Below are positions 1-9,791 of a stretch of DNA of 45,470 nucleotides, piece by piece (the stretch's first letter is position 1; the number at the start of each line of letters is the position of its first letter). The DNA comes from Candidatus Methylomirabilales bacterium. GTDB lineage: Bacteria > Methylomirabilota > Methylomirabilia > Methylomirabilales > CSP1-5. The notes under the pieces were generated by a model. It saw only the letters and a list, made by a program, of their open reading frames with translations, did no database searches and was not told where the DNA came from. A program made the translations under genes and the position numbers. Location of the stretch: NCBI GenBank assembly GCA_046758505.1, contig JBHIAH010000016.1, positions 1 through 45,470 of the forward strand, written 5' to 3'.

Positions 1-721
1 CCACCATCACCGGGTCATCCTTTCCGACGTATTTGCCGGCGATCAGGCTGAGCTTTTGGGTGGAGGCTGCTGCGGCGATCTCTCCATCGCTCCGGCGCCG
101 CACTTCGGTGATCATGAACTGGTTGGAAGCCCCCAGAAAGACGAGGAGATCGTACAATTCCTCCGGACAGCTCAGGACGATGGTGGCATCCTTCTTGGCG
201 TCCAAGACCGTGAACTGAAATCCCTCGTGCATCTTCGGGTCGATGATGAGCCCGGCGGTCGTGAAGGGGTCGGCGAATATCCGGTACAGGGGAAAATTCC
301 AGGCCCCCGGAGAGCATTTATCCCCCATGAAGACCACGACCGGCTCGCTGGTCCGCTCCACGAACTCCATCTCTGCCACTCCCGGGCCCATCCCCTTGAC
401 GTTCCCGGAAAAGGCGTCGGCGAGGAGATCCTGGCCGGCCCCGTACAGGTGAAGCCGCTTGGCCACGGTTGTGCAGGCCATGAAGGTATCCCACGACAGG
501 CGATGGATCACCTCGGCGTCCACCCCGTGCCGGTGGGTGATGACGAGGTCAATGTCATCCCCACACCGGGCCACATGATAATCGATGATCGTCTTCTTGT
601 TCTTGGCGGCCTCGAGCGATTCGCCGGCCTTCTGGAGGAGCTCGGGGTGGACCCGGTTGTGGCCGGTGTAGCTCCCCACGTCGGCCTTGATGACGCTTAG
701 GGTGAGCTTTTGGCTGGGCAT
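1..721 (-). CDS. fbp: Fructose-1,6-bisphosphate aldolase/phosphatase (class V FBPase), 3' end runs off the window
   Basis: Not in the ORF track. Manual translation from ATG 721 gives MPSQKLTLSVIKADVGSYTGH...CGDD...LYGAGQDLLADAFSGNVKGMGPG...DKCSPGAWN...FADPF...KYVGKDDP, the signature motifs of FBP aldolase/phosphatase. AAAGGAGG RBS upstream. Confidence 0.95.
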   Translation of the reverse strand, partial: MPSQKLTLSVIKADVGSYTGHNRVHPELLQKAGESLEAAKNKKTIIDYHVARCGDDIDLVITHRHGVDAEVIHRLSWDTFMACTTVAKRLHLYGAGQDLLADAFSGNVKGMGPGVAEMEFVERTSEPVVVFMGDKCSPGAWNFPLYRIFADPFTTAGLIIDPKMHEGFQFTVLDAKKDATIVLSCPEELYDLLVFLGASNQFMITEVRRRSDGEIAAAASTQKLSLIAGKYVGKDDPVMV

Positions 722-829
722 GATCGGCATCCCTCCTTTCCAAAGCCGCGCATCTGCCTGGATCACGTGATGAGCAAGGACGATAACAATGTGCGGGATG
801 GGACTCCTGCCTTACGTCCGAAGGCCTAT

Positions 830-858
830 ACTATACGTCAAAACGATTGGCAGGTAAA
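830..858 (-). promoter_or_regulatory. Possible sigma-70 promoter of fbp
   Basis: TTTACC-17 nt-TATAGT on the minus strand, about 110 nt upstream of the ATG. Confidence 0.45.
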
Positions 859-963
859 GGAAAAAAGAACTTGCCAGCACAGGTCCGCGGGTGGGTTGTG
901 AGCGAAATGGCCTCGGTTTCGGGAGGTCGAGGCGGATGAGGAGCGCTCGTGAGACGGGGCGAC

Positions 964-1665
964 CTACGGAGTATCCACCGTGGAGGCCTCCGCCGAGAGG
1001 CGATCCACGAGGGTGCGGATCGCGGTAGCCTCTGATGGGTTGAGGTCGAGGAAACATACTCCCATCCCGGTGATGGCAGGCGGGTCCGTCTCCTGACCGG
1101 ACACCCATGCGACCTGCCCGCGAACCGAGAGAGGATCGGACAGGCCCGGGAGCGTGAAGTGGAGTGCGAGCTCTGTCCCGGCCGCCGCTGGGCGGTCGGT
1201 CACGATAAACATCCCCCCCTCACTCAGGTTGAGACACGTCCCATGCGCCGTCGTCCCCGCCTGCCTGTATTCGACGTCGATTTGAACGGGGGTCCGGGTA
1301 TGGACCCGCCTTTTGGGCTGAGAGACCCATTGCCGGACCAGGGACGGGTCGACCGACTCCTCGAAGGCGACTCCGTGTGGAAACCTGGTCCCCAGGCCGG
1401 TCGGCGTCCCGTCGCCAACCGAAACAACGTGGCCGCGCAGCGGATTACTCCCATTGACCTCGAGCGATACCGGCGTCTCGACCGGCAGGGCCTCGGGCAG
1501 CAGGATCTCGAGTCCACCGGCGTTCACGTTCCGAGTCACCCCGTCAAGGAGCTGCGGCTGCGCCTGCTCCGGACTCAGGACGGTGCACTGGACGGGCAGG
1601 TAGCGGGCAAATCGGAGGTGGCGGCGGTAGTGGAGAGTCGGTGTTTTTGGGTCGGCAGCCATCAT
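964..1665 (-). CDS. Tandem PilZ-domain protein (c-di-GMP receptor)
   Basis: Two RxxxR plus (D/N)xSxxG-type motif sets: RRHLR/NVNAGG and RRVHTR/NLSEGG. CCGGAGG RBS. Confidence 0.9.
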   Translation of the reverse strand: MMAADPKTPTLHYRRHLRFARYLPVQCTVLSPEQAQPQLLDGVTRNVNAGGLEILLPEALPVETPVSLEVNGSNPLRGHVVSVGDGTPTGLGTRFPHGVAFEESVDPSLVRQWVSQPKRRVHTRTPVQIDVEYRQAGTTAHGTCLNLSEGGMFIVTDRPAAAGTELALHFTLPGLSDPLSVRGQVAWVSGQETDPPAITGMGVCFLDLNPSEATAIRTLVDRLSAEASTVDTP

Positions 1666-1700
1666 TCGCCTCCGGTACGAAACGCATCAGGCAGGATTTT

Positions 1701-1716
1701 AGCAAGATCCATGCCA
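1701..1716 (-). promoter_or_regulatory. Sigma-54 promoter
   Basis: TGGCATGGATCTTGCT, GG-N10-GC spacing, 35 nt upstream of the PilZ gene. Confidence 0.85.
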
Positions 1717-1899
1717 CCATGGGCCATGGAGAGGAATGCTGGGAAAAGAGGATCACGTCACCGGACGGGAGGGGTCCCATCTTGCGGGGGGGGAGGCGGC
1801 AGAGGCCCCCGTAAGGGTGCTTAAAACTTGGCTTTTTGGCGACGTCAGGGGATGGAGTTACCCGCTATGGGGGGAGGGAGTGCCGTGACAATCCTCCCC

Positions 1900-2490
1900 C
1901 TACCGGGAGGCCACGACGAAGTGACCCCGGCGGTTCCATTTCCAGGTGGACTCGTCGTGTCCAAGGAGAAAGGGCCGCTCCTCCCCATAGCTGATCGTCG
2001 AGATCCGCTTGATATCAATGCCGCCGGCGACCAGGTAGTCCCGGACCGCCCTGGCCCGCTGTTCCCCCAGCGCAAGGTTGTACTCGTTCGCCCCGCGCTC
2101 ATCGCAGTGGCCCTCGATCACGATACGAATTCGGGGATTGGCCTTGAGCCACCGGATGTTGCCGTTCAGGGTTCTCTTTGCAGCCTCGGTGAGGACGGCC
2201 TTGTCGAAGTCGAAGAAGACATCCTTTAAGGGAGACGCCTTTGTGAGCGCCCCCCCCGGGCCGGTTCTCGGCCGTGCTCCGGGCCCAGGCGTCACCGGGA
2301 TCTCCCGGATCGGTGTCGGCTGGCCGATTTTCTCCTCGACCACTTTCCCTTCCGGCTGCGGTGCCCCCCCCGGGCCCGTCGCCCCCGGCTTTCCCGCCTG
2401 CCCTCCCGGCTTTTTCGGGCAGCCGACCAGGATCAGTGATGTCCCCAAGAGGATGGCTGCAGCCCTCAGATGGACACACCGGTGCTTCAT
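1900..2490 (-). CDS. pal: Peptidoglycan-associated lipoprotein Pal (OmpA C-like domain)
   Basis: Lipobox LVGC; FFDFD, EGHCDERG, YNLALGEQRA, ISYGEERP and NRR motifs. Confidence 0.92.
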   Translation of the reverse strand: MKHRCVHLRAAAILLGTSLILVGCPKKPGGQAGKPGATGPGGAPQPEGKVVEEKIGQPTPIREIPVTPGPGARPRTGPGGALTKASPLKDVFFDFDKAVLTEAAKRTLNGNIRWLKANPRIRIVIEGHCDERGANEYNLALGEQRARAVRDYLVAGGIDIKRISTISYGEERPFLLGHDESTWKWNRRGHFVVASR

Positions 2491-2677
2491 GGGATTTCCC
2501 CCCCCTTCCCGTCAACCCACGGGTCCGTGATTTAGCGACCCCTTCCGCCACTATCTCGCTTTCGACGTACGAGTCAAGTCAATTTTCCCTGCGGCGGGTG
2601 GCGTTGTTTTTCTCTATCTCCATCCATTGCCATGCCTCCGTTGCTCTAATTCGAGGGGGCCTCGCATAACTCATCGC

Positions 2678-2706
2678 TTGACTTCTTCGAGGGCCTCTTC
2701 TATACT
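2678..2706 (+). promoter_or_regulatory. Near-consensus sigma-70 promoter of glpX-hisS-aspS
   Basis: TTGACT-17 nt-TATACT. Confidence 0.8.
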
Positions 2707-2764
2707 TTTTCCCCGCTTTAACTGCAGAAGGAATCACGCTTTTACGGCGCTCGGGAGGTTCTGG

Positions 2765-3721
2765 ATGGAGCGGAATCTGGCCCTCGAGGTGGTTCGGGTG
2801 GCTGAAGCCGCCGCGCTCTCGTCCGCACGATGGATGGGGCGGGGTAATGACGCGCTGGCGGAGCAGACCGCCCTGGATGCCATGCGCCGGGCCATTGATA
2901 CGGTAAATTTCTCTGGAACCGTGGTGATCGGGCGGGGAGAGAAAGGGGAGACCTCCACCCTGTATGTGGGTGAGCAGGTCGGTTCCGGCTCCGGGCCCGA
3001 ACTGGATGTGGCGGTGGAACCGCTCGAAGGGCCGTCCATCGTGGCCGAGGGGCGGGCGAACGCGGTCGCCGCGGTCGCCCTGGCGGAGAAGGGGTGTCTC
3101 TTTCCTGCCCCGGACGTGTACATGGAGAAGATCGCGGTCGGGCCCAGGGCGCTGGGGGCCATTGAAATCACCGCCGGGCCGGAGGCGAACCTCCGCTCCA
3201 TCGCGGAGACGATGAAGTGTTACGTGGAAGATCTCACCGTGGTCATCCTCGACCGACCCCGTCACGGTGAGCTCATCCGGGCGGTCCGCGAGTTGGGGGC
3301 GCGGATCAAGCTGATTCAGGATGGCGACCTCTCGGCGGCCATTGCCGCCGCGCTCGAGGGTTCGGGTGTGGATGTCCTCATGGGGATCGGGCGGGCACCG
3401 GAAGGGGTCCTGGCGGCGGCGGCCCTGAGATGCCTGGGTGGCGACATGCAGGCCCAATTTCGACCGGCGAATGTGGATGATGTCGAGCGTATCCGTCGGA
3501 CCGGCCTGAAGGAGATCGACCGCGTCCTCACCATTACTGATCTCGCCCGGGGGGGAGGGGTCACGTTCACCGCGACCGGCGTCACCGATGGCGATTTCCT
3601 GAAAGGGGTCCGGTTTTTCGGCGGTGGAGCAAAGACCCACTCCCTGGTGATGCGTTTCAGGTCGGGAACGGTCCGGTTCATCGAGGCCATCCACCGCTTT
3701 GACCGTAATCCCATCTATTAA
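2765..3721 (+). CDS. glpX: Class II fructose-1,6-bisphosphatase (GlpX) homologue with a degenerate active site
   Basis: MERNLALEVVRVAEAAAL start after GGAGG; PDVYM, DRPRH, DGD, APEG and TGVTDG motifs retained; catalytic motifs altered (see findings). Confidence 0.92.
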   Translation: MERNLALEVVRVAEAAALSSARWMGRGNDALAEQTALDAMRRAIDTVNFSGTVVIGRGEKGETSTLYVGEQVGSGSGPELDVAVEPLEGPSIVAEGRANAVAAVALAEKGCLFPAPDVYMEKIAVGPRALGAIEITAGPEANLRSIAETMKCYVEDLTVVILDRPRHGELIRAVRELGARIKLIQDGDLSAAIAAALEGSGVDVLMGIGRAPEGVLAAAALRCLGGDMQAQFRPANVDDVERIRRTGLKEIDRVLTITDLARGGGVTFTATGVTDGDFLKGVRFFGGGAKTHSLVMRFRSGTVRFIEAIHRFDRNPIY

Positions 3722-3817
3722 GCCTTCCCCGTTTACCTCGTCCCCGGCGTGTGCGGATCCCTTCCCGTTCCAGCGTGGTGGAATACGGGGAGCGTGCAGA
3801 CGGCCCGAGGAGAGTGG

Positions 3818-5092
3818 ATGCAGGAGAGCCAATCCGTGATCAGGGGGGTCCGGGGCGCCGCCGACATTCTGCCCGACGAGGTCGGTCGCTGGCAACGTGT
3901 GGAGGCCCAGGCCCGGCGGATCTTGGAGAACTATGCGTACCAGGAAATCCGGACGCCCATCTTCGAGCGGACCGAACTTTTTGTCCGGGGGATCGGGGAG
4001 GGGACCGACATCGTGGACAAACAGATGTACACCTTCCAGGACAGGGGGCACGAGAGCCTCACCCTGCGCCCGGAGGGCACTGCTCCCGTGATCCGCTCGT
4101 ACCTCGAACACCGACTGTTCACCGGAGGGGGGCTCTGCAAGGTGTATTACATTGGCCCGATGTTCCGCCATGAACGGCCTCAGGCGGGCCGGTTCCGGCA
4201 ATTTCACCAGATCGGGGCCGAGGCCCTCGGAGTGGGGGACCCGGCCCTCGACGCCGAGGTGCTCGACGTCCTCGCGCATCTGTTCGATACCGTGGGCGTC
4301 GAGGGGTGGCAACTCCACCTCAACAGTATCGGCGATGAGGCATGCCGCCCGGCTTTCCGCGAACGGTTCGCCCTCTATATGCGGGGCAGGAAAGAGCACC
4401 TGTGTCCGGATTGTCTCGGGCGTCTCGAGCGGAATCCCCTTCGGATCCTGGATTGCAAAGTGGAGGGATGCCGGAACCTTGTCGCCGAAGCCCCCCACCC
4501 CCTCGAATCGCTGTGTCGGGATTGCGAAGCGCATTTCCAGCGACTGCAGGACCTATTGCGGCTCCTCACGATCGACTATAGCATCAATATACACCTGGTT
4601 CGCGGCCTCGATTATTACACCCGGACCACCTTTGAATTCGTAAACCCGTCCCTGGGAGCGCAAAATGCCATCGCCGGCGGGGGGAGGTATGACCTCTTGG
4701 TGAAAGAGATGGGGGGGCCCCCGACGCCCGGGATCGGCTTTGCCGTCGGCATGGAGCGTCTGCTGATCTCCCTCCCGCCGGCGTCTCCGGAGGAGGCGAG
4801 GGAGGGTGTCTTCGCGGCGACCTTGGGGGAGGAGGCGTTTCAACTGGGCCTTCGGATCGTCCGTGAGTTCCGCCGGCAGGGGGTCCGGGCCTCCGTGGAT
4901 CTGGAAGGGCGCTCCCTGAAGGGCCAGATGCGTCTCGCCCACAAGGAACGATACCGCTACACGCTTATCCTCGGTGATGAGGAGCTCAAGGCGGAGATGG
5001 CCACGGTCAAAGACATGGCCCAGGGAGGACAGGAGCAGGTTCCCCTGCGGGAAGTGGTGGATCGGTTGAGGGGGTTGATGAAGGACGCATGA
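3818..5092 (+). CDS. hisS: Histidine--tRNA ligase
   Basis: LRPEGTA, FRHERPQAGRFRQFHQ, LVRGLDYY and GGGRYD motifs. Confidence 0.98.
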   Translation: MQESQSVIRGVRGAADILPDEVGRWQRVEAQARRILENYAYQEIRTPIFERTELFVRGIGEGTDIVDKQMYTFQDRGHESLTLRPEGTAPVIRSYLEHRLFTGGGLCKVYYIGPMFRHERPQAGRFRQFHQIGAEALGVGDPALDAEVLDVLAHLFDTVGVEGWQLHLNSIGDEACRPAFRERFALYMRGRKEHLCPDCLGRLERNPLRILDCKVEGCRNLVAEAPHPLESLCRDCEAHFQRLQDLLRLLTIDYSINIHLVRGLDYYTRTTFEFVNPSLGAQNAIAGGGRYDLLVKEMGGPPTPGIGFAVGMERLLISLPPASPEEAREGVFAATLGEEAFQLGLRIVREFRRQGVRASVDLEGRSLKGQMRLAHKERYRYTLILGDEELKAEMATVKDMAQGGQEQVPLREVVDRLRGLMKDA

Positions 5093-6852
5093 CACGAAGC
5101 TGCTACTGCGGAGAGGTGACGGCGGAATGGGTGGGGGAGACCGTCACGGTGATGGGCTGGGTCCACCGGAGGCGGGACCACGGGGGTCTCATCTTTGTGG
5201 ATCTTCGGGACCGGGAGGGGATTGTCCAGATCCTTTTCGGCCCGGAGCATGGGCGTGACGCCTATGAGACCGCCAAACGGATTCGGTCGGAGTATGTGGT
5301 CGCCGTAACGGGCAAGGTCCGCCGGCGTCCCCCCGGGACCGAAAACGTCGACCTGAAGACCGGGGAGGTGGAGGTTCGGGCTGTCGACACGGCGATCCTG
5401 AATGAGGCCAGGACCCCGGTTTTCCCGCTGGACGAGGATCGGCCGATCAGCGAGGAGCTTCGCCTCACCTATCGGTATCTGGACCTGCGCCGTCCGCCGG
5501 TCCAGGGAAACCTCCGGGTCCGGCACCAGATGTACCAGGTGGTCCGGGCCTTCTTCGACCGGCACGGCTTCATCGAGGTGGAGACCCCGGTCCTCACCCG
5601 GAGCACCCCGGAGGGGGCTAGGGACTACCTGGTCCCGGCCCGGCTCTACCCCGGCCAGTTCTTTGCGCTCCCCCAGTCTCCCCAGCTCTTCAAACAGCTC
5701 CTGATGGTGGCGGGCCTCGACCGGTATTTCCAGATCGTCAAGTGTTTCCGCGATGAAGACCTGCGGGCCGACCGGCAGCCAGAGTTTACCCAGATTGACG
5801 TGGAGATGTCTTTTGTGGACCGGGACGACGTCTTGGTCCTCATGGAAGAGCTCATTGTCGCTCTCTTTCGCGAAGTGAAGGGGGTGGAGCTCGACCGGCC
5901 CTTTCCCCGCTTGCCCTACCAGGAGGCGGTGGCAACCTACGGTCTCGATAACCCGGATAGCCGATTCGAGATGTTCCTCGTGGATATTAGCGACCTGTGC
6001 CGGGGGACAACCTTCCGCCCTTTTGCGGAAGCCCTCGCCGGGGGGGGACAGGTCAAGGGGGTCAAGGCGAAGGGGAAGGCCGAGGCGTTCTCCCGGAAGG
6101 TGATCGACGACCTCACCGAATTTGTGAAGGGCCTCGGTGCCAAGGGTCTCACCCCTTTTCGAATGACGAAAGAGGGGGTCCAGTCTCCGGTGGCGAAGTT
6201 TCTTGATCCTGACGCCGTCCGGGGGATTGCCCGCCGCTTCGAACTCGAGGACGGGGACGTGGTTCTCGTGATCGCCGACAGCCCGATGGCGGTGGCGGAG
6301 ATCCTCGGTCGCCTTCGGGTGAAGATGGGACAGGAGCTGGGCCTGATCGAGGAGACCCTCATCCGCCCGCTCTGGGTCGTCGATTTTCCCCTCTTGGAGT
6401 ATAGCGAGGAGGAGCAGCGGCACGTGGCGGTTCACCACCCCTTCACCGCCCCCCTCGATGAGGACCTGTCCCTCTTAGAGCACGCCCCCGAGAAGATGCG
6501 GGCCAAGGCGTACGACCTCGTCATCAACGGGCAGGAGGTAGCGGGGGGGAGCATCCGAATCCATCACCGAGCGGTGCAGTCCAGAATGTTTGGCATCCTG
6601 GGCCTTTCCGAGGCCGAGGCAAAGGAGAAATTCGGCTTCCTCCTCGAGGCCCTCGAGTTCGGCACACCACCGCACGGCGGGATTGCATTTGGGTTCGACC
6701 GCCTCGTCATGCTGCTCACGGGGGCCGAGTCGATTCGCGAGGTGATCGCCTTTCCCAAGACGCAGCGGGCCCAGTGTCTCATGACCAGCGCCCCGGCGGT
6801 CGTGGACCCCGGACAGCTCAAGGACCTCCATCTCAAACTGGATGTTCGCTAA
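5089..6852 (+). CDS. aspS: Aspartate--tRNA ligase, probably non-discriminating
   Basis: RRRDHGG, STPEGARDY, LPQSPQLFKQ, DRQPEFTQID and PPHGG motifs; ATGA overlap with hisS. Confidence 0.98.
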   Translation: MTRSCYCGEVTAEWVGETVTVMGWVHRRRDHGGLIFVDLRDREGIVQILFGPEHGRDAYETAKRIRSEYVVAVTGKVRRRPPGTENVDLKTGEVEVRAVDTAILNEARTPVFPLDEDRPISEELRLTYRYLDLRRPPVQGNLRVRHQMYQVVRAFFDRHGFIEVETPVLTRSTPEGARDYLVPARLYPGQFFALPQSPQLFKQLLMVAGLDRYFQIVKCFRDEDLRADRQPEFTQIDVEMSFVDRDDVLVLMEELIVALFREVKGVELDRPFPRLPYQEAVATYGLDNPDSRFEMFLVDISDLCRGTTFRPFAEALAGGGQVKGVKAKGKAEAFSRKVIDDLTEFVKGLGAKGLTPFRMTKEGVQSPVAKFLDPDAVRGIARRFELEDGDVVLVIADSPMAVAEILGRLRVKMGQELGLIEETLIRPLWVVDFPLLEYSEEEQRHVAVHHPFTAPLDEDLSLLEHAPEKMRAKAYDLVINGQEVAGGSIRIHHRAVQSRMFGILGLSEAEAKEKFGFLLEALEFGTPPHGGIAFGFDRLVMLLTGAESIREVIAFPKTQRAQCLMTSAPAVVDPGQLKDLHLKLDVR

Positions 6853-6890
6853 CTTCTTGAAATTTCTGCCCAAACGTAGCGCTTTTTCAG

Positions 6891-6920
6891 TTGACAGTGG
6901 GAGGAGGGGGGAAGTAGCAT
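6891..6920 (+). promoter_or_regulatory. Possible sigma-70 promoter of the phoH operon, followed by a GC hairpin at 6932-6955
   Basis: TTGACA-18 nt-TAGCAT; hairpin AGGGGACGG-tacggg-CCGTCCCCT. Confidence 0.55.
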
Positions 6921-6990
6921 TTGACACAGGCAGGGGACGGTACGGGCCGTCCCCTCATTTCTCTCAGGAGGGGGAAGCATTCGAGAACAC

Positions 6991-8022
6991 ATGAAAGGCG
7001 ACCGTGCACCGGTGCGAAGGCAGATCCCGCTCCCGTCCGGATCGAAGATCCAGGCCCTGTTCGGTCTGAACGACGAGCACATACGGATGGTGGAGGATTG
7101 TCTCCACATCCGGTTGGTCGCCCGGAATGGGCTCTTGACGATTAGTGGGGACACGGAACAGGTCGACATCGCCGAGCGGGTGATTGCCGAACTGACCACG
7201 CTCCTGGAAGGGGGACGGACCATCGGAAGCCGCGACGTAAAGTTGGCTCTTCGGCACGTCTCCCGGGAGGAGGACGCAACCTTCCGGAAGATCCAGAAGG
7301 AGGTGATCGAGGTCTCTTCCAAGAAGAGGCCGATCCGGCCCAAGAGCCTCGGGCAGCAGCATTACATCGACGCCATCCGGACCTTCGACATCGTGTTTGG
7401 CATTGGACCGGCGGGAACCGGGAAGACCTACCTGGCGATGGCGATGGCGGTCTCGGCGCATCTGAGGCGACAGGTGAGTCGGATCATCCTGACCCGTCCG
7501 GCGGTCGAGGCGGGGGAGCGGCTCGGATTTCTTCCCGGGACCCTCTACGAGAAGATCCATCCGTACCTCCGTCCCCTCTATGATGCGCTGTACGACATGC
7601 TCGAGACGGAGCGAGCGAACCGGCTGATCGAAATGGGCGTCATCGAAATTGCGCCCCTCGCATTCATGAGGGGACGGACCCTCAATGATGCCTTCATCAT
7701 CCTCGACGAGGCGCAGAACACCACATCCGAGCAGATGAAGATGTTTCTCACCCGGCTCGGGTTCAGCTCGAAAGCGGTGATCACCGGCGATATCACCCAG
7801 GTGGACCTTCCCCCCGGAAAGATTTCGGGACTCATCGAGGTGCGTTCGGTTTTGAAGGATGTCCAGGGGATCGATTTCGTCTACCTTGGCGAGGAGGATG
7901 TTGTTCGTCACGAGTTGGTCCAGCAGATCATTCGTGCCTATGAGCAGCGCCAGACCTCACCTCCCTCTTCGGAAGACCCCAAGTGGCACGAGGAGACCCT
8001 GGGGACGGCCCGGGGGGACTGA
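6991..8022 (+). CDS. phoH: PhoH-family ATPase (YbeZ-like)
   Basis: GPAGTGKT, RPAVEAGERLGFLPG, RGRTL and DEAQN motifs. Confidence 0.95.
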   Translation: MKGDRAPVRRQIPLPSGSKIQALFGLNDEHIRMVEDCLHIRLVARNGLLTISGDTEQVDIAERVIAELTTLLEGGRTIGSRDVKLALRHVSREEDATFRKIQKEVIEVSSKKRPIRPKSLGQQHYIDAIRTFDIVFGIGPAGTGKTYLAMAMAVSAHLRRQVSRIILTRPAVEAGERLGFLPGTLYEKIHPYLRPLYDALYDMLETERANRLIEMGVIEIAPLAFMRGRTLNDAFIILDEAQNTTSEQMKMFLTRLGFSSKAVITGDITQVDLPPGKISGLIEVRSVLKDVQGIDFVYLGEEDVVRHELVQQIIRAYEQRQTSPPSSEDPKWHEETLGTARGD

Positions 8023-8114
8023 GGCGTCGGTTGCGAGTCCACCCTGTGATCTTCCATCCGGTGATGTGTCCTCGCGCTTCATCTCGTGCGGCTGTTGTTG
8101 GCAGTGAGGAATGG

Positions 8115-9791
8115 ATGAAGATTTCCCTCTGGCCCGTATCCGGGGCGAAGAAGGGCAACGACACCAAGGCGCGGAGCAAGCCGACGAGCCTCCCCCCCTA
8201 CCGGTATCGCCTTTCCCCGATGGGGCAACTCTTTCGAGTCTCGGAGGGGCGCCCGCTCATTCTCCAGGTCTCGGGCGTCCTGCTGGTGTTGGCTGTCGGC
8301 GCGATCGTCGCCTCTTATCGCCCCCTCCTCGTGGATCTCGTTTCGGCCCTCGCGATCCTCCTCTTTGTCCTTTTCGTGCTCGGCACCCTCTACTATTATC
8401 TCCAGTTCCTCGAGACGCGGCCGGTGATGTCGCCGAAGCACCTCTACCTCTTGGGGACGGTGATCCTCCTGGCCATCGTGATCAACCGCTTCCTCCTCGT
8501 CATCCTCCAGTCCTTAAGCCAGAGTTTTCCCTCCATTCCCATCCACTCTTTTTACTATACCATTCCGGTGGCGCTCGGCAGTGTACTACTCACCGTCCTC
8601 TTCAATGCCCGGACGGCCTTTGGAGGAGCCGTCGCCCTGGCCATTCTCACGACGGTGCTGGTGACGGATGAGGTAACCTTCCTCCTCTTTGGGCTGGTCG
8701 GGGCCATCGTCGGTGCCTTCACCATCTGGCGGACCCAGGACCGAACCACCTTCTTCAAGGCGGGCTTCTGGGTGGCCGCGGCCAGTGTGTCGACCATTAT
8801 TGTCTTTGTCCCGATCTACGGGTGGTCGGCACGAGCGCTCCCGTATGATCTGGGAGCCTGTGTCGTGAACGGCGTGTTGGTCGCCCTCTTTGCCTCGACA
8901 CTCCTCCCCGTGCTGGAGTATCTCTTTGAGACCACCACCGATCTGAAACTCCTCGAGCTCTCGAACCTGAACCGGCCCCTCTTGAAGCAGCTCATGAAGA
9001 CGGCTCCCGGGACCTATCACCATAGCCTGATGATGGGGGAGCTGGCGGAGGCGGCATCCGAGGCCGTCGGCGCCAATCCTCTCTTGTGTCGGGTGGGCGC
9101 GTACTATCACGACATCGGCAAGGTGAAGAAGCCAGCCTACTTCATCGAAAATCAGATGGACGCCATGAACAGGCACGACAAGCTTTCCCCAAGTTTGAGC
9201 AGTCTCATCGTCATCTCCCACGTCAAGGATGGAATCGAGATGGCCCTGGAGCACCGGCTGCCGCCTGCCATCGTGGACCTGATCCCCCAGCACCACGGCA
9301 CGCGCCTGGTCACCTATTTCTATGAAAAAGCCAAAGAGTCGCAGGATCCCGACCTCGGTGAGGTGAAGGAAGAGGATTACCGGTACCCGGGCCCCAAGCC
9401 TCAAACCAGGGAGGCGGCGATCCTGATGCTGGCCGATGCGGTTGACGCGGCCGCACGGACGCTCACCGACCCGACGCCGGCCCGGGTCCAGGGACTGGTC
9501 CAGCGGATCGTGAACAGCGTCTTTACCGAGGGGCAACTGTCCGAGTGCGACCTCACCTTGAAAGACCTGCACCAGATTGCGAGGGCCTTTGTCCGTGTCC
9601 TCACCGCTGTCCACCACCACCGTGTGGACTATCCGGGATATCGATTCGAAGAAGACAAGAAGAAGGAGGGAGAGAAGAAGGGGGATGGGGATACAGGTCC
9701 GAAACCGGCAAAGGAGGAGGCGGGTCGGCCTGTCACGGCTCACAAGGGTGGGGGAGAGGGCATTATCCGCCTTGGGCAGACCGAAGAGTGA
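8115..9791 (+). CDS. Membrane HDIG phosphohydrolase (7TM-HD, PgpH/YqfF-like putative c-di-AMP phosphodiesterase)
   Basis: Several TM helices followed by APGTYHHS, YYHDIGK, QHHGT, YPGPKP and MLADAVDAA; typical phoH-HD-ybeY gene order. Start codon inferred. Confidence 0.88.
   Translation: MKISLWPVSGAKKGNDTKARSKPTSLPPYRYRLSPMGQLFRVSEGRPLILQVSGVLLVLAVGAIVASYRPLLVDLVSALAILLFVLFVLGTLYYYLQFLETRPVMSPKHLYLLGTVILLAIVINRFLLVILQSLSQSFPSIPIHSFYYTIPVALGSVLLTVLFNARTAFGGAVALAILTTVLVTDEVTFLLFGLVGAIVGAFTIWRTQDRTTFFKAGFWVAAASVSTIIVFVPIYGWSARALPYDLGACVVNGVLVALFASTLLPVLEYLFETTTDLKLLELSNLNRPLLKQLMKTAPGTYHHSLMMGELAEAASEAVGANPLLCRVGAYYHDIGKVKKPAYFIENQMDAMNRHDKLSPSLSSLIVISHVKDGIEMALEHRLPPAIVDLIPQHHGTRLVTYFYEKAKESQDPDLGEVKEEDYRYPGPKPQTREAAILMLADAVDAAARTLTDPTPARVQGLVQRIVNSVFTEGQLSECDLTLKDLHQIARAFVRVLTAVHHHRVDYPGYRFEEDKKKEGEKKGDGDTGPKPAKEEAGRPVTAHKGGGEGIIRLGQTEE

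Follow-up and report, generated by a model that had tools for sequence, protein, structure and literature searches.

Our analysis of the glpX gene that precedes hisS and aspS in the window (the whole 45,470-nt stretch of Methylomirabilales DNA analysed here) suggests, with moderate confidence, that its product is a pseudo-FBPase that is maintained by selection and in which the metal site has been replaced by arginines. The loss of both Thr90 and the metal-binding Glu57 under strong selection suggests, as judged from sequence, that this protein (P0001) probably binds a sugar phosphate and is not the FBPase as which it is listed in databases. In a literature search for GlpX pseudoenzymes and catalytically inactive paralogs, no published description of an inactive GlpX was found.

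The protein clearly belongs to the GlpX family. Its residues 3-310 are spanned by positions 1-307 of the profile PF03320 (FBPase_glpX; 425.8 bits, cut-off 27), and the alignment to M. tuberculosis GlpX (6ayy/6ayu/6ayv), with which it shares about 50% identity, has an E value of 3e-94 in HMMER and contains no gaps over query residues 3-113. It is equal in length to the class II FBPases of E. coli (3d1r/2r8t), M. tuberculosis (6ayy/7txb) and F. tularensis (7js3/7txa) and, like these, consists of a single domain. The GlpX fold is preserved in the predicted AF2 model of P0001 (pLDDT 95.6, pTM 0.93), which was matched by Foldseek to 6ayv, 7txb and 2r8t with TM scores of 0.93-0.95 and an rmsd of 1.3-1.4 A. 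P0001 also scores well above the cut-off of the equivalog model TIGR00330 (348 versus 259.3 bits), an observation that argues against a pseudo-FBPase. The features of the gene and its surroundings are collected in Table 1.

Table 1. Features of the glpX-hisS-aspS region and of the neighbouring FBPA/P gene (positions in the window; residues in E. coli GlpX numbering)
Feature	Position	Strand	Remarks
Class V FBP aldolase/phosphatase (FBPA/P), N-terminal 255 aa	2..766	-	Truncated at contig end; NF041126 positions 1-236
Sigma-70-like promoter TTGACT-17 nt-TATACT, 5' of glpX	2678..2706	+	10/12 matches; consensus match only
Shine-Dalgarno-like GGGAGG	2753..2758	+	6 nt 5' of ATG, read from sequence
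GlpX-family CDS (P0001), degenerate-site variant	2765..3721	+	318 aa plus stop, uninterrupted
Codon 33, Glu replacing Asp33	2861..2863	+	
Remodelled metal loop, residues 57-65: R57 (was Glu), G61 (was Asp), T63, S64, T65 (was Met)	2933..2959	+	
Residues 85-90, E-P-L-E-G-P replacing D-P-x-(D/E)-G-T (metal and nucleophile motif)	3017..3034	+	
Tyr119, kept 6-phosphate ligand	3119..3121	+	Role: PMC5892879
R164-P-R166-H167, kept 6-phosphate-binding motif	3254..3265	+	Role: PMC10289334
D186-G-D188, kept furanose-hydroxyl-binding motif	3320..3328	+	Role: PMC10289334
R210 (was Gly) through E213 (kept metal ligand)	3392..3403	+	
hisS (histidyl-tRNA synthetase), next gene, glpX strand	3818..5092	+	tRNA-synt_His and anticodon-binding domain
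aspS (aspartyl-tRNA synthetase)	5089..6852	+	Overlaps hisS stop
Terminator-like hairpin after aspS	6932..6955	+	10 pairs; pattern match only

The initial annotation had described the gene as an intact reading frame with a near-consensus promoter and a ribosome-binding site that leads hisS-aspS, and all of these elements were recovered. The promoter was the best of four sites found in a scan of positions 2400-7000, compared to 0.8 +/- 0.9 in shuffled sequences. The number of terminator-like hairpins in a corresponding scan (4) was close to that expected (3.8); three of them lie upstream of glpX or within aspS, and only the hairpin listed in Table 1 is located downstream of glpX-hisS-aspS. Known RNA elements were not detected at gathering score around the operon (positions 1-9000 scanned).

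When numbered according to E. coli GlpX by means of the residue equivalences given in PMC5892879, P0001 carries the substitutions K29D, D33E, E57R, D61G, D85E, T90P and G210R in the alignment to the M. tuberculosis protein, while Y119, R164-P-R166-H167, D186-G-D188, E88 and E213 are kept, in agreement with the changes and retained motifs enumerated in the initial annotation. Canonical GlpX thus shares with P0001 the 6-phosphate triad Y119/R164/R166, the furanose-binding DGD motif, E88 and E213, but has Thr90 and Glu57 where P0001 has Pro and Arg, in addition to the differences at positions 33, 61, 85 and 210. The acidic metal-ligand positions 33, 85, 88 and 213 are all occupied by carboxylates (E33, E85, E88, E213), two of which arose by Asp-to-Glu replacement. 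D33E and D85E are conservative changes. Although K29D, which had been named as a key change, is indeed present, K29 is no family-wide residue, being Lys in just 64 of 134 representatives with a residue at this position and already Glu in the canonical-like sister clade, and the substitution is uninformative.

The published work on GlpX gives these positions a functional meaning. PMC5892879 assigns Asp33, Glu57, Asp85, Glu88, Thr90, Tyr119, Lys164, Arg166, Asp188 and Glu213 to the catalytic site and describes Asp33 of the E. coli enzyme as both a metal ligand and the partner of Thr90. According to PMC10289334, E57 is the apical ligand of M1, the single required metal. The T84A mutant of M. tuberculosis GlpX is reported to be inactive (PMC5892879) while retaining substrate binding affinity (PMC5485559; PMC5892879), and the T89A mutant of F. 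tularensis GlpX is described as completely inactive (PMC10289334); replacement of the catalytic Thr by Ser is reported to leave partial activity (PMC5892879; PMC10289334; PMC5485559). By analogy, the inactivity of T84A and T89A (PMC5892879, PMC10289334) strongly implies that catalysis would be lost in the variant. Like P0001, both mutants have no hydroxyl at the equivalent of position 90, and the T84A structure, 6ayv_A, is the best Foldseek match of the P0001 model. However, the mutants are single laboratory changes in an otherwise canonical metal site, whereas the change in P0001 is natural and selected, and its metal site has also been rebuilt with arginines.

The substitutions define a conserved clade, a point that had been raised for checking in the initial annotation. 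The full set was found in 12 of 12 full-length genes of the genus, and every site shows its derived residues in 58 to 64 of the 64 closest metagenome proteins (R57 63/64, G61 61/64, T63 62/64, T65 63/64, E85 61/64). Position 210 is R in 58, K in 3 and G in 3 of these proteins, and position 90 is Pro in 30 and Ala in 34, but never Thr or Ser; in the 12 genus genes it is likewise either Pro or Ala. The ligand residues are kept in the same 64 proteins (Y119, R164, R166 and D188 in all, D186 in 63), and R164 and R166 are present in 120 of 120 homologues listed.

The reading frame is intact in all 12 genus genomes with a full-length copy, and the dN/dS ratio, which had also been proposed as a check, was about 0.09 and far from 1 (NG86, 66 pairs of genus genes; median 0.093, maximum 0.13, median dS 0.69). 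This value was unchanged when an unpublished genome was left out, and it compares to 0.085 for the bona fide GlpX encoded in the Calvin cluster of this genus and to approximately 0.10 for the canonical-like orthologues. Two genomes encode identical proteins, with a dN/dS of 0 at a dS above 0.05 for the pair. Synonymous codon turnover was observed at the derived sites R57 (CGG/CGC/CGA), G61 (GGA/GGG/GGC) and E85 (GAA/GAG) as well as at residue 63, and the codons at position 210 in the 12 genus genes were AGG, CGG and AAG. The variant glpX is under purifying selection equal in strength to that on its canonical relatives. That the gene is decaying, or that the unusual residues stem from errors of sequencing or assembly confined to this contig, has almost no probability: beyond the unusual residues themselves, nothing but S64, which is private to P0001 (Pro in 118 of 120 homologues listed), speaks for it, and it is refuted by the clade-wide residues and the dN/dS, to which the intact reading frames and the conserved hisS-aspS synteny can be added.

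The variant is the order-wide orthologue of glpX-hisS-aspS in NC10/Methylomirabilales; at 29 of the 30 group A loci inspected, the gene is followed by hisS. When the catalytic columns were removed before the tree was calculated, the family (13 rows), the genus (12 rows) and the whole orthologue (30 rows) each formed a starred clade. At the nine sites labelled on this tree, the canonical state is seen in 6 of 6 outgroup representatives and in the basal orthologues; the canonical residues are ancestral and the degenerate state is derived. The canonical-like orthologues of sister genera (e.g. L004, L006, L002) are 70-72% identical to the variant and share its hisS neighbour, but unlike the variant they keep D33, E57, D61, D85, T90 and G210. 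Moreover, in another genus this orthologue includes a degenerate subclade with Q57, A/S90 and A/V166. The orthologues at this one syntenic locus range from canonical through partly degenerate to fully rebuilt, all under equal constraint, and offer a natural series for the study of how an enzyme turns into a pseudoenzyme.

The genome from which the window derives (G000, 96.8% complete) contains a single glpX; a second, canonical glpX, the presence of which had been suggested for checking, was not found in it, and neither a class I FBPase nor RuBisCO was detected at this completeness. A class V FBPA/P is present, as two contig-end pieces, the second of which (NF041126 positions 219-356) lies on another contig (G000:C85), and all 14 of the family's other genomes have the gene as well; it is likely the real FBPase of G000. 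The earlier proposal that gluconeogenic activity is supplied by this nearby enzyme therefore holds with regard to the presence of the gene. However, several canonical glpX genes of the sister genera also adjoin a class V FBPA/P, which indicates that redundancy preceded degeneration and is insufficient as an explanation on its own. Conversely, in the genomes of the Q57 subclade (up to 100% complete) there was no class I match above cut-off and no class V FBPase. As a general rule, the idea that a redundant FBPase permits degeneration is not borne out on either count, with sister genera canonical despite FBPA/P and the Q57 subclade degenerate without a class I or V match. In the Q57 subclade either FBPase is dispensable or the degenerate forms still function, and this ambiguity counts against a pseudo-FBPase.

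A GlpX paralogue of the same family as the variant is found in a Calvin cluster in 4 of 14 genomes of the genus, but this protein is only about 48% identical to the variant, canonical at all sites, unlinked to hisS and was not found in G000. In L041 the cluster comprises a class I aldolase, transketolase, glpX, the RuBisCO large subunit, a CbbX-like AAA protein and PRK. A role of the variant as the Calvin-cycle FBP/SBPase was rejected, given that there is no RuBisCO match in G000 and that the Calvin cluster of the congeners has its own canonical GlpX. Likewise, a need for an SBPase arising from a missing transaldolase was rejected on the basis of two TAL_FSA matches in G000.

The preferred reading of the variant as a pseudo-FBPase leads to the following model. 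In the pocket, the half for the 6-phosphate and the furanose hydroxyls is intact, while the half that in canonical GlpX binds the metal and attacks the 1-phosphate has been rebuilt. Compared to the canonical sister orthologues, the variant carries four additional positive charges, as many as the two divalent cations contribute in the canonical site. R57 and R210, which are placed in the metal site on the basis of their position in the sequence and the literature, may pair with E33, E85, E88, E213 and the 1-phosphate of the ligand, so that a sugar bisphosphate (FBP or SBP) could be bound metal-free and unhydrolysed, and the protein might serve as a receptor, as a buffer or as a regulatory subunit. 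The conversion of FBP to F6P in G000 would be left to the class V FBPA/P 2 kb upstream, and in congeners with a Calvin-cycle cluster the canonical GlpX inside this cluster would also be at hand. One argument against a receptor role is that a binding protein with just one domain depends on a partner for its output. The prediction of a complex between the FBPA/P of a congener and its variant GlpX gave a score of 0.00, which counts neither way.

A less probable alternative is that the variant is still an enzyme with a relocated nucleophile or general base (e.g. T63 or T65), a remodelled one-metal or metal-free site, or a different phosphorylated substrate. The chemical retention of E85, E88 and E213 means that a metal site may persist, since these positions correspond to Asp79, Asp82 and Glu208, which are reported to hold one Mg2+ in M. 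tuberculosis GlpX (PMC5892879). T63 and T65 are new, conserved and located in the loop closing on the metal site, and either could in principle replace Thr90. This alternative is further in line with the fixation of the derived residues, as in a functioning site, with purifying selection that matches that on true GlpX enzymes, and with the Q57-subclade orthologues, which are the sole recognizable class I/II/V FBPase-family genes in near-complete genomes. On the other hand, replacement of the catalytic Thr by Ala is reported to abolish activity in two orthologues in which Ser remains partly active, and the alternation of Pro and Ala at position 90 within the clade suggests that no functional group is selected there. 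In addition, an Arg in place of the apical metal ligand would be expected to repel a cation, and the independent cationic solutions found in different lineages (R57/R210 here, K90/K85 in Spirochaetota) are more easily reconciled with charge compensation than with a single new chemistry.

It is improbable that the protein has a role independent of its pocket, for instance as an oligomeric scaffold or protein partner, with the arginines merely plugging and stabilizing an empty metal site. Such a role would be consistent with the fully preserved fold and with the existence of non-catalytic members in the wider fold, such as SuhB, which occurs in an rrn antitermination complex among the distant Foldseek matches (6tqn). 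GlpX enzymes are described as 222 homotetramers (PMC5892879), which makes an interface-based role possible. However, the conservation of Y119, R164, R166, D186 and D188 in the 64 closest proteins is hard to square with an unused pocket, and a partner protein is not indicated.

If the variant is inactive, the automatic labels that designate this orthologue as a class II fructose-bisphosphatase are wrong, despite the TIGR00330 pass, and reconstructions of gluconeogenesis in NC10/Methylomirabilales that rely on it need revision. In bacteria, fructose-1,6-bisphosphate serves as a central signal of flux, and a dedicated FBP receptor derived from an FBPase would be a novel type of sensor.

A similar trend was found in other phyla, and its recurrence in Spirochaetota adds to the case for a pseudo-FBPase. 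Degenerate GlpX-like proteins from Spirochaetota, Krumholzibacteria and Deltaproteobacteria MAGs keep the RPR and DGD motifs, as does the variant, and are without Thr90 and metal ligands; Lys or Arg frequently takes the place of these residues. In distinction from R57/R210 of the NC10 variant, the replacements in Spirochaetota are K90/K85, and the lineages are distinct. The GlpX fold might have been turned repeatedly into metal-free sugar-bisphosphate receptors, at least in NC10/Methylomirabilales and Spirochaetota, with further forms in Krumholzibacteria and deltaproteobacterial MAGs, a generalization that we put forward only tentatively. In each lineage, the catalytic Thr and the metal carboxylates would have been exchanged, frequently for Lys or Arg, under continued strong purifying selection and with the 6-phosphate and furanose motifs kept. 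If true, this generalization would point to an unrecognized and widespread class of FBP/SBP-sensing or -buffering proteins that equivalog-level models mislabel as active class II FBPases; the degenerate proteins of the other phyla are all annotated as class II FBPase. In the Spirochaetota clade (P0122 and relatives), position 90 is Lys or Arg in 93 of 118 proteins and position 85 is Lys in 37, while R164, D186 and D188 are kept.

Sequence and predicted fold identify P0001, the product of the glpX gene in the window, as a GlpX-family protein that is well folded. It matched Pfam family PF03320 (FBPase_glpX) from end to end with 425.8 bits and the NCBIfam equivalog TIGR00330 with 348 bits (cut-off 259.3), and its closest solved relatives were the GlpX proteins of M. 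tuberculosis (E 3e-94), F. tularensis, two cyanobacteria and E. coli. Its AlphaFold2 model, based on an 89-row alignment, had a mean pLDDT of 95.6 and a pTM of 0.93 and was placed on the GlpX structures 6ayv_A, 7txb_A and 2r8t with TM scores of 0.93-0.95 and an rmsd of 1.3-1.4 Å. PMC5892879 lists Asp33, Glu57, Asp85, Glu88, Thr90, Tyr119, Lys164, Arg166, Asp188 and Glu213 as the active site of E. coli GlpX together with the M. tuberculosis equivalents, and thereby fixes the numbering of P0001. When P0001 was aligned to M. tuberculosis GlpX (gapless over query 3-113), D29, E33, R57, G61, E85 and P90 replaced K, D, E, D, D and T, respectively, and, beyond the gapless stretch, R210 replaced G, while Y119, R164-P-R166-H, D186-G-D188, E88 and E213 were retained. 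Both the substitutions and the retained motifs listed in the initial annotation are therefore real, although the change at position 29 is uninformative (Lys in 64 of the 134 representatives having a residue there, and Glu already in the canonical-like sister clade). Six of the ten active-site residues are thus unchanged, D33E and D85E are conservative replacements, and E57R and T90P are radical ones. E57 is described as the lower apical ligand of the single required metal (PMC10289334), a T84A GlpX mutant is reported to be inactive (PMC5892879), and a T89A mutant completely inactive and T89S slower (PMC10289334).

The substitutions are not private to P0001 and define a clade. The best 120 of 8000 scored homologues were all of about 318 residues and, where a source was named, belonged to candidate division NC10 or Candidatus Methylomirabilales. 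Of these, the 64 closest to P0001 (83-100% identity, query counted) carried R57 (63/64), G61 (61/64), T65 (63/64), E85 (61/64), Arg or Lys at 210 (61/64) and, at position 90, either Pro (30) or Ala (34); E33 was present in all 62 proteins reaching that position. Y119, R164, R166 and D188 were retained in 64/64 of these proteins, D186 in 63/64 and E213 in 59/64. In contrast, a second group of 52 proteins with about 70% identity had E57, D61, M65, D85 and G210 in 52/52 and T90 in 51/52; P0065, P0082, P0087 and P0092 were assigned to neither group because they are intermediate. The two groups were separated by 37 columns at a consensus of at least 85%, and among these the known pocket positions with a change of charge were 57, 61 and 210. 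Within the phylum, glpX was matched in 59 of 201 genomes (the glpX and FBPA/P tallies take in the unpublished G151, G046, G028, G057 and G100, on which no conclusion rests), including 12 of the 13 other genomes of the window's genus, one match being a contig-end fragment of 56 residues. E33, R57, G61, T65, E85, P or A90 and R or K210 are encoded by every full-length gene of the genus (12 in total, the window's counted and one, L045, supplied by G151). The remaining genome, G059 (96% complete), had no glpX match, yet the class V FBP aldolase/phosphatase (FBPA/P) was present, reflecting either an assembly gap or dispensability of the variant gene.

The 12 genus genes had a median pairwise Nei-Gojobori dN/dS of 0.093, far from 1 (maximum 0.13, median dS 0.69, 66 pairs); the estimates were rerun without G151 and G046, the latter supplying the canonical-like orthologue L003, and the genus median was unchanged without G151 (55 pairs). 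Similar values were found for the canonical-like orthologues (0.099, 21 pairs) and for the canonical Calvin-cluster paralogue from this genus (0.085, 6 pairs), and one pair of identical GlpX proteins from two genomes had a dN/dS of 0 with dS above 0.05. Derived residues showed synonymous turnover, with CGG, CGC and CGA for R57, GGA, GGG and GGC for G61, ACC, ACG and ACA for T63, and GAA and GAG for E85; position 210 was encoded by AGG, CGG or, for Lys, AAG. Gene decay and sequencing error as the source of the substitutions are excluded. The window gene is a conserved, selected GlpX orthologue without residues essential for GlpX catalysis.

A quick tree computed for 84 GlpX proteins placed the variant inside a starred 30-row clade (group A), in which seven genera of the order are each represented by one gene. 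The hisS gene lies directly 3' of glpX at 29 of the 30 group A loci, the exception being L005, and at no paralogue locus. A careful tree of 36 rows, from which 11 catalytic columns were left out, had group A (98/97), the family clade (13 rows, 100/100) and the genus clade (12 rows, 100/98) as starred clades. The nine labelled sites are canonical in the six outgroup representatives without exception and in the basal members of group A, so the variant state is derived. On this tree, at least four changes are required to account for where Thr or Ser is present at position 90, and at least two for Glu57. Degenerate lineages occur elsewhere in group A too: K57, E90, H186 and R210 are found in the family's second genus, E33, T65 and G90 in another genus, and a third-genus subclade (L013, L015, L017, L020, L024) has Q57 throughout; four of its five genes carry Ala or Ser at position 90 together with Ala or Val at position 166, one of them also with G85, and the fifth, L024, retains T90 and R166. 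The two other degenerate lineages with enough genes likewise had dN/dS values of 0.086 (10 pairs) and 0.079 (1 pair), the Q57 subclade having 0.086.

Sequences matching the promoter and ribosome-binding site described in the initial annotation, and the downstream hisS-aspS pair, were all recovered (see table), and no Rfam family reached its gathering score in window 1-9000. The genes for a PilZ-domain and an OmpA-family protein separate FBPA/P from glpX in the window; this insert differs among congeners, and in sister genera FBPA/P and glpX are directly adjacent without it. A long antisense open frame running over glpX into hisS is probably a side effect of G+C-rich coding sequence on the opposite strand.

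Features of the glpX region of the window
Feature	Position	Strand	Remark
FBPA/P, first 255 residues	2-766	-	truncated by contig end
Two-stretch PilZ-domain protein gene	964-1665	-	upstream of glpX
OmpA-family (Pal-like) lipoprotein gene	1900-2490	-	upstream of glpX
Antisense open frame	2579-4534	-	651 codons
Promoter-like TTGACT-17-TATACT	2678-2706		upstream of glpX; sequence-pattern scan
GGGAGG	6 nt before glpX ATG		read from sequence
glpX (P0001)	2765-3721	+	GlpX-family CDS; 318-residue translation
hisS	3818-5092	+	Pfam-confirmed; after glpX
aspS	5089-6852	+	Pfam-confirmed; after hisS
Terminator-like hit	6932-6955		sole scan hit 3' of glpX-hisS-aspS; pattern match only

The window's genome (96.8% complete, 149 contigs) contains this one glpX only, and no class I FBPase or RuBisCO large-subunit match was found in it; it has two transaldolase-family matches, one ATP-dependent phosphofructokinase over the equivalog cut-off and a second, partial one under the cut-offs. 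In 4 of the 14 genomes of the genus there is an additional glpX that has about 48% identity and the canonical residue at each site; in the one genome annotated, its locus has the gene order class I aldolase, transketolase, glpX, RuBisCO large subunit, AAA protein, phosphoribulokinase. FBPA/P is represented by two contig-end pieces, that of the window covering model positions 1-236 and another (G000:C85:10512-10940, on a further contig of the same genome) covering 219-356; since they overlap at 219-236, they most likely stem from one assembly-broken gene. The enzyme is present in 14/14 other genomes of the family. The proposal that FBPA/P supplies the activity is plausible, but redundancy alone does not explain the change, because a canonical glpX of group A lies next to FBPA/P in divergent orientation in two sister genera, and because neither a class V match nor a class I match above the cut-off was found in genomes of the Q57 subclade, including ones 95-100% complete.

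Relative to the canonical-like orthologues, the pocket of P0001 has gained four positive charges (E57R +2, D61G +1, G210R +1), matching the combined charge of the two divalent cations that the GlpX mechanism proposed in PMC5892879 positions close to the scissile phosphate. The nucleophile-bearing Thr is absent, and the switching between Pro and Ala at position 90 means that no functional group is under selection at this site. Residues contacting the 6-phosphate and the furanose hydroxyls show little or no variation in the clade. In the simplest reading, the arginines would take over the electrostatic role of the metals, and P0001 would bind a sugar bisphosphate metal-free, without cleaving it. 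The main rival is that P0001 is still an active enzyme with a relocated catalytic residue: the newly conserved T63 and T65 sit in the loop that becomes ordered around the metal (PMC10289334), and one cation could still be held by E85, E88 and E213. P0001 is most likely a pseudoenzyme, its inactivity, ligand binding and cellular role all being putative. The dismantled site reported initially is confirmed, and the initial interpretation, a protein without phosphatase activity kept for binding, regulation or scaffolding, is partly supported. Within the rebuilt loop (residues 57-65), residue 64 (window 2954-2956) is Ser in P0001 versus Pro in 118 of the 120 homologues listed, a private change.

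P0001 is probably one instance of a recurrent, unannotated phenomenon in the GlpX family. In a wider set made up of the 150 best representatives of 50%-identity clusters, biased because it was ranked by likeness to a degenerate query, only 76 of the 127 representatives spanning all ten active-site positions were canonical at all ten, and position 90 was neither Thr nor Ser in 25 of 150 and gapped in three more. Some degenerate clusters were source-named as Krumholzibacteria or Deltaproteobacteria MAG proteins, and all were annotated as class II fructose-bisphosphatase. A search from one representative, P0122 (K57, G61, R210), yielded a large set (P0122 and P0298-P0414), the named members mostly from Spirochaetota and every member carrying this same annotation, with Lys (76/118) or Arg (17/118) at position 90 (93/118 together), Lys85 in 37/118 and Asp33 in only 16/118 (non-Asp 102/118), and with R164 (117/118), D186 (117/118) and D188 (118/118) retained. 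The group A orthologue L011:1495-2448 has K57, G61 and Q213 but retains T90; a basic residue 57 combined with D61G thus arose more than once, and the pair also occurs in P0122. A literature search for inactive GlpX homologues or a GlpX pseudoenzyme found no paper. In another genus of the order, tandem glpX paralogues occur at L021:1612-2436 and 2630-3514, and at the same coordinates in L022; the first copy has Val90 and Glu186, three of its relatives also have Asn61, and the second copy is fully canonical, so the tandem may be a pair of a dead and a live GlpX.
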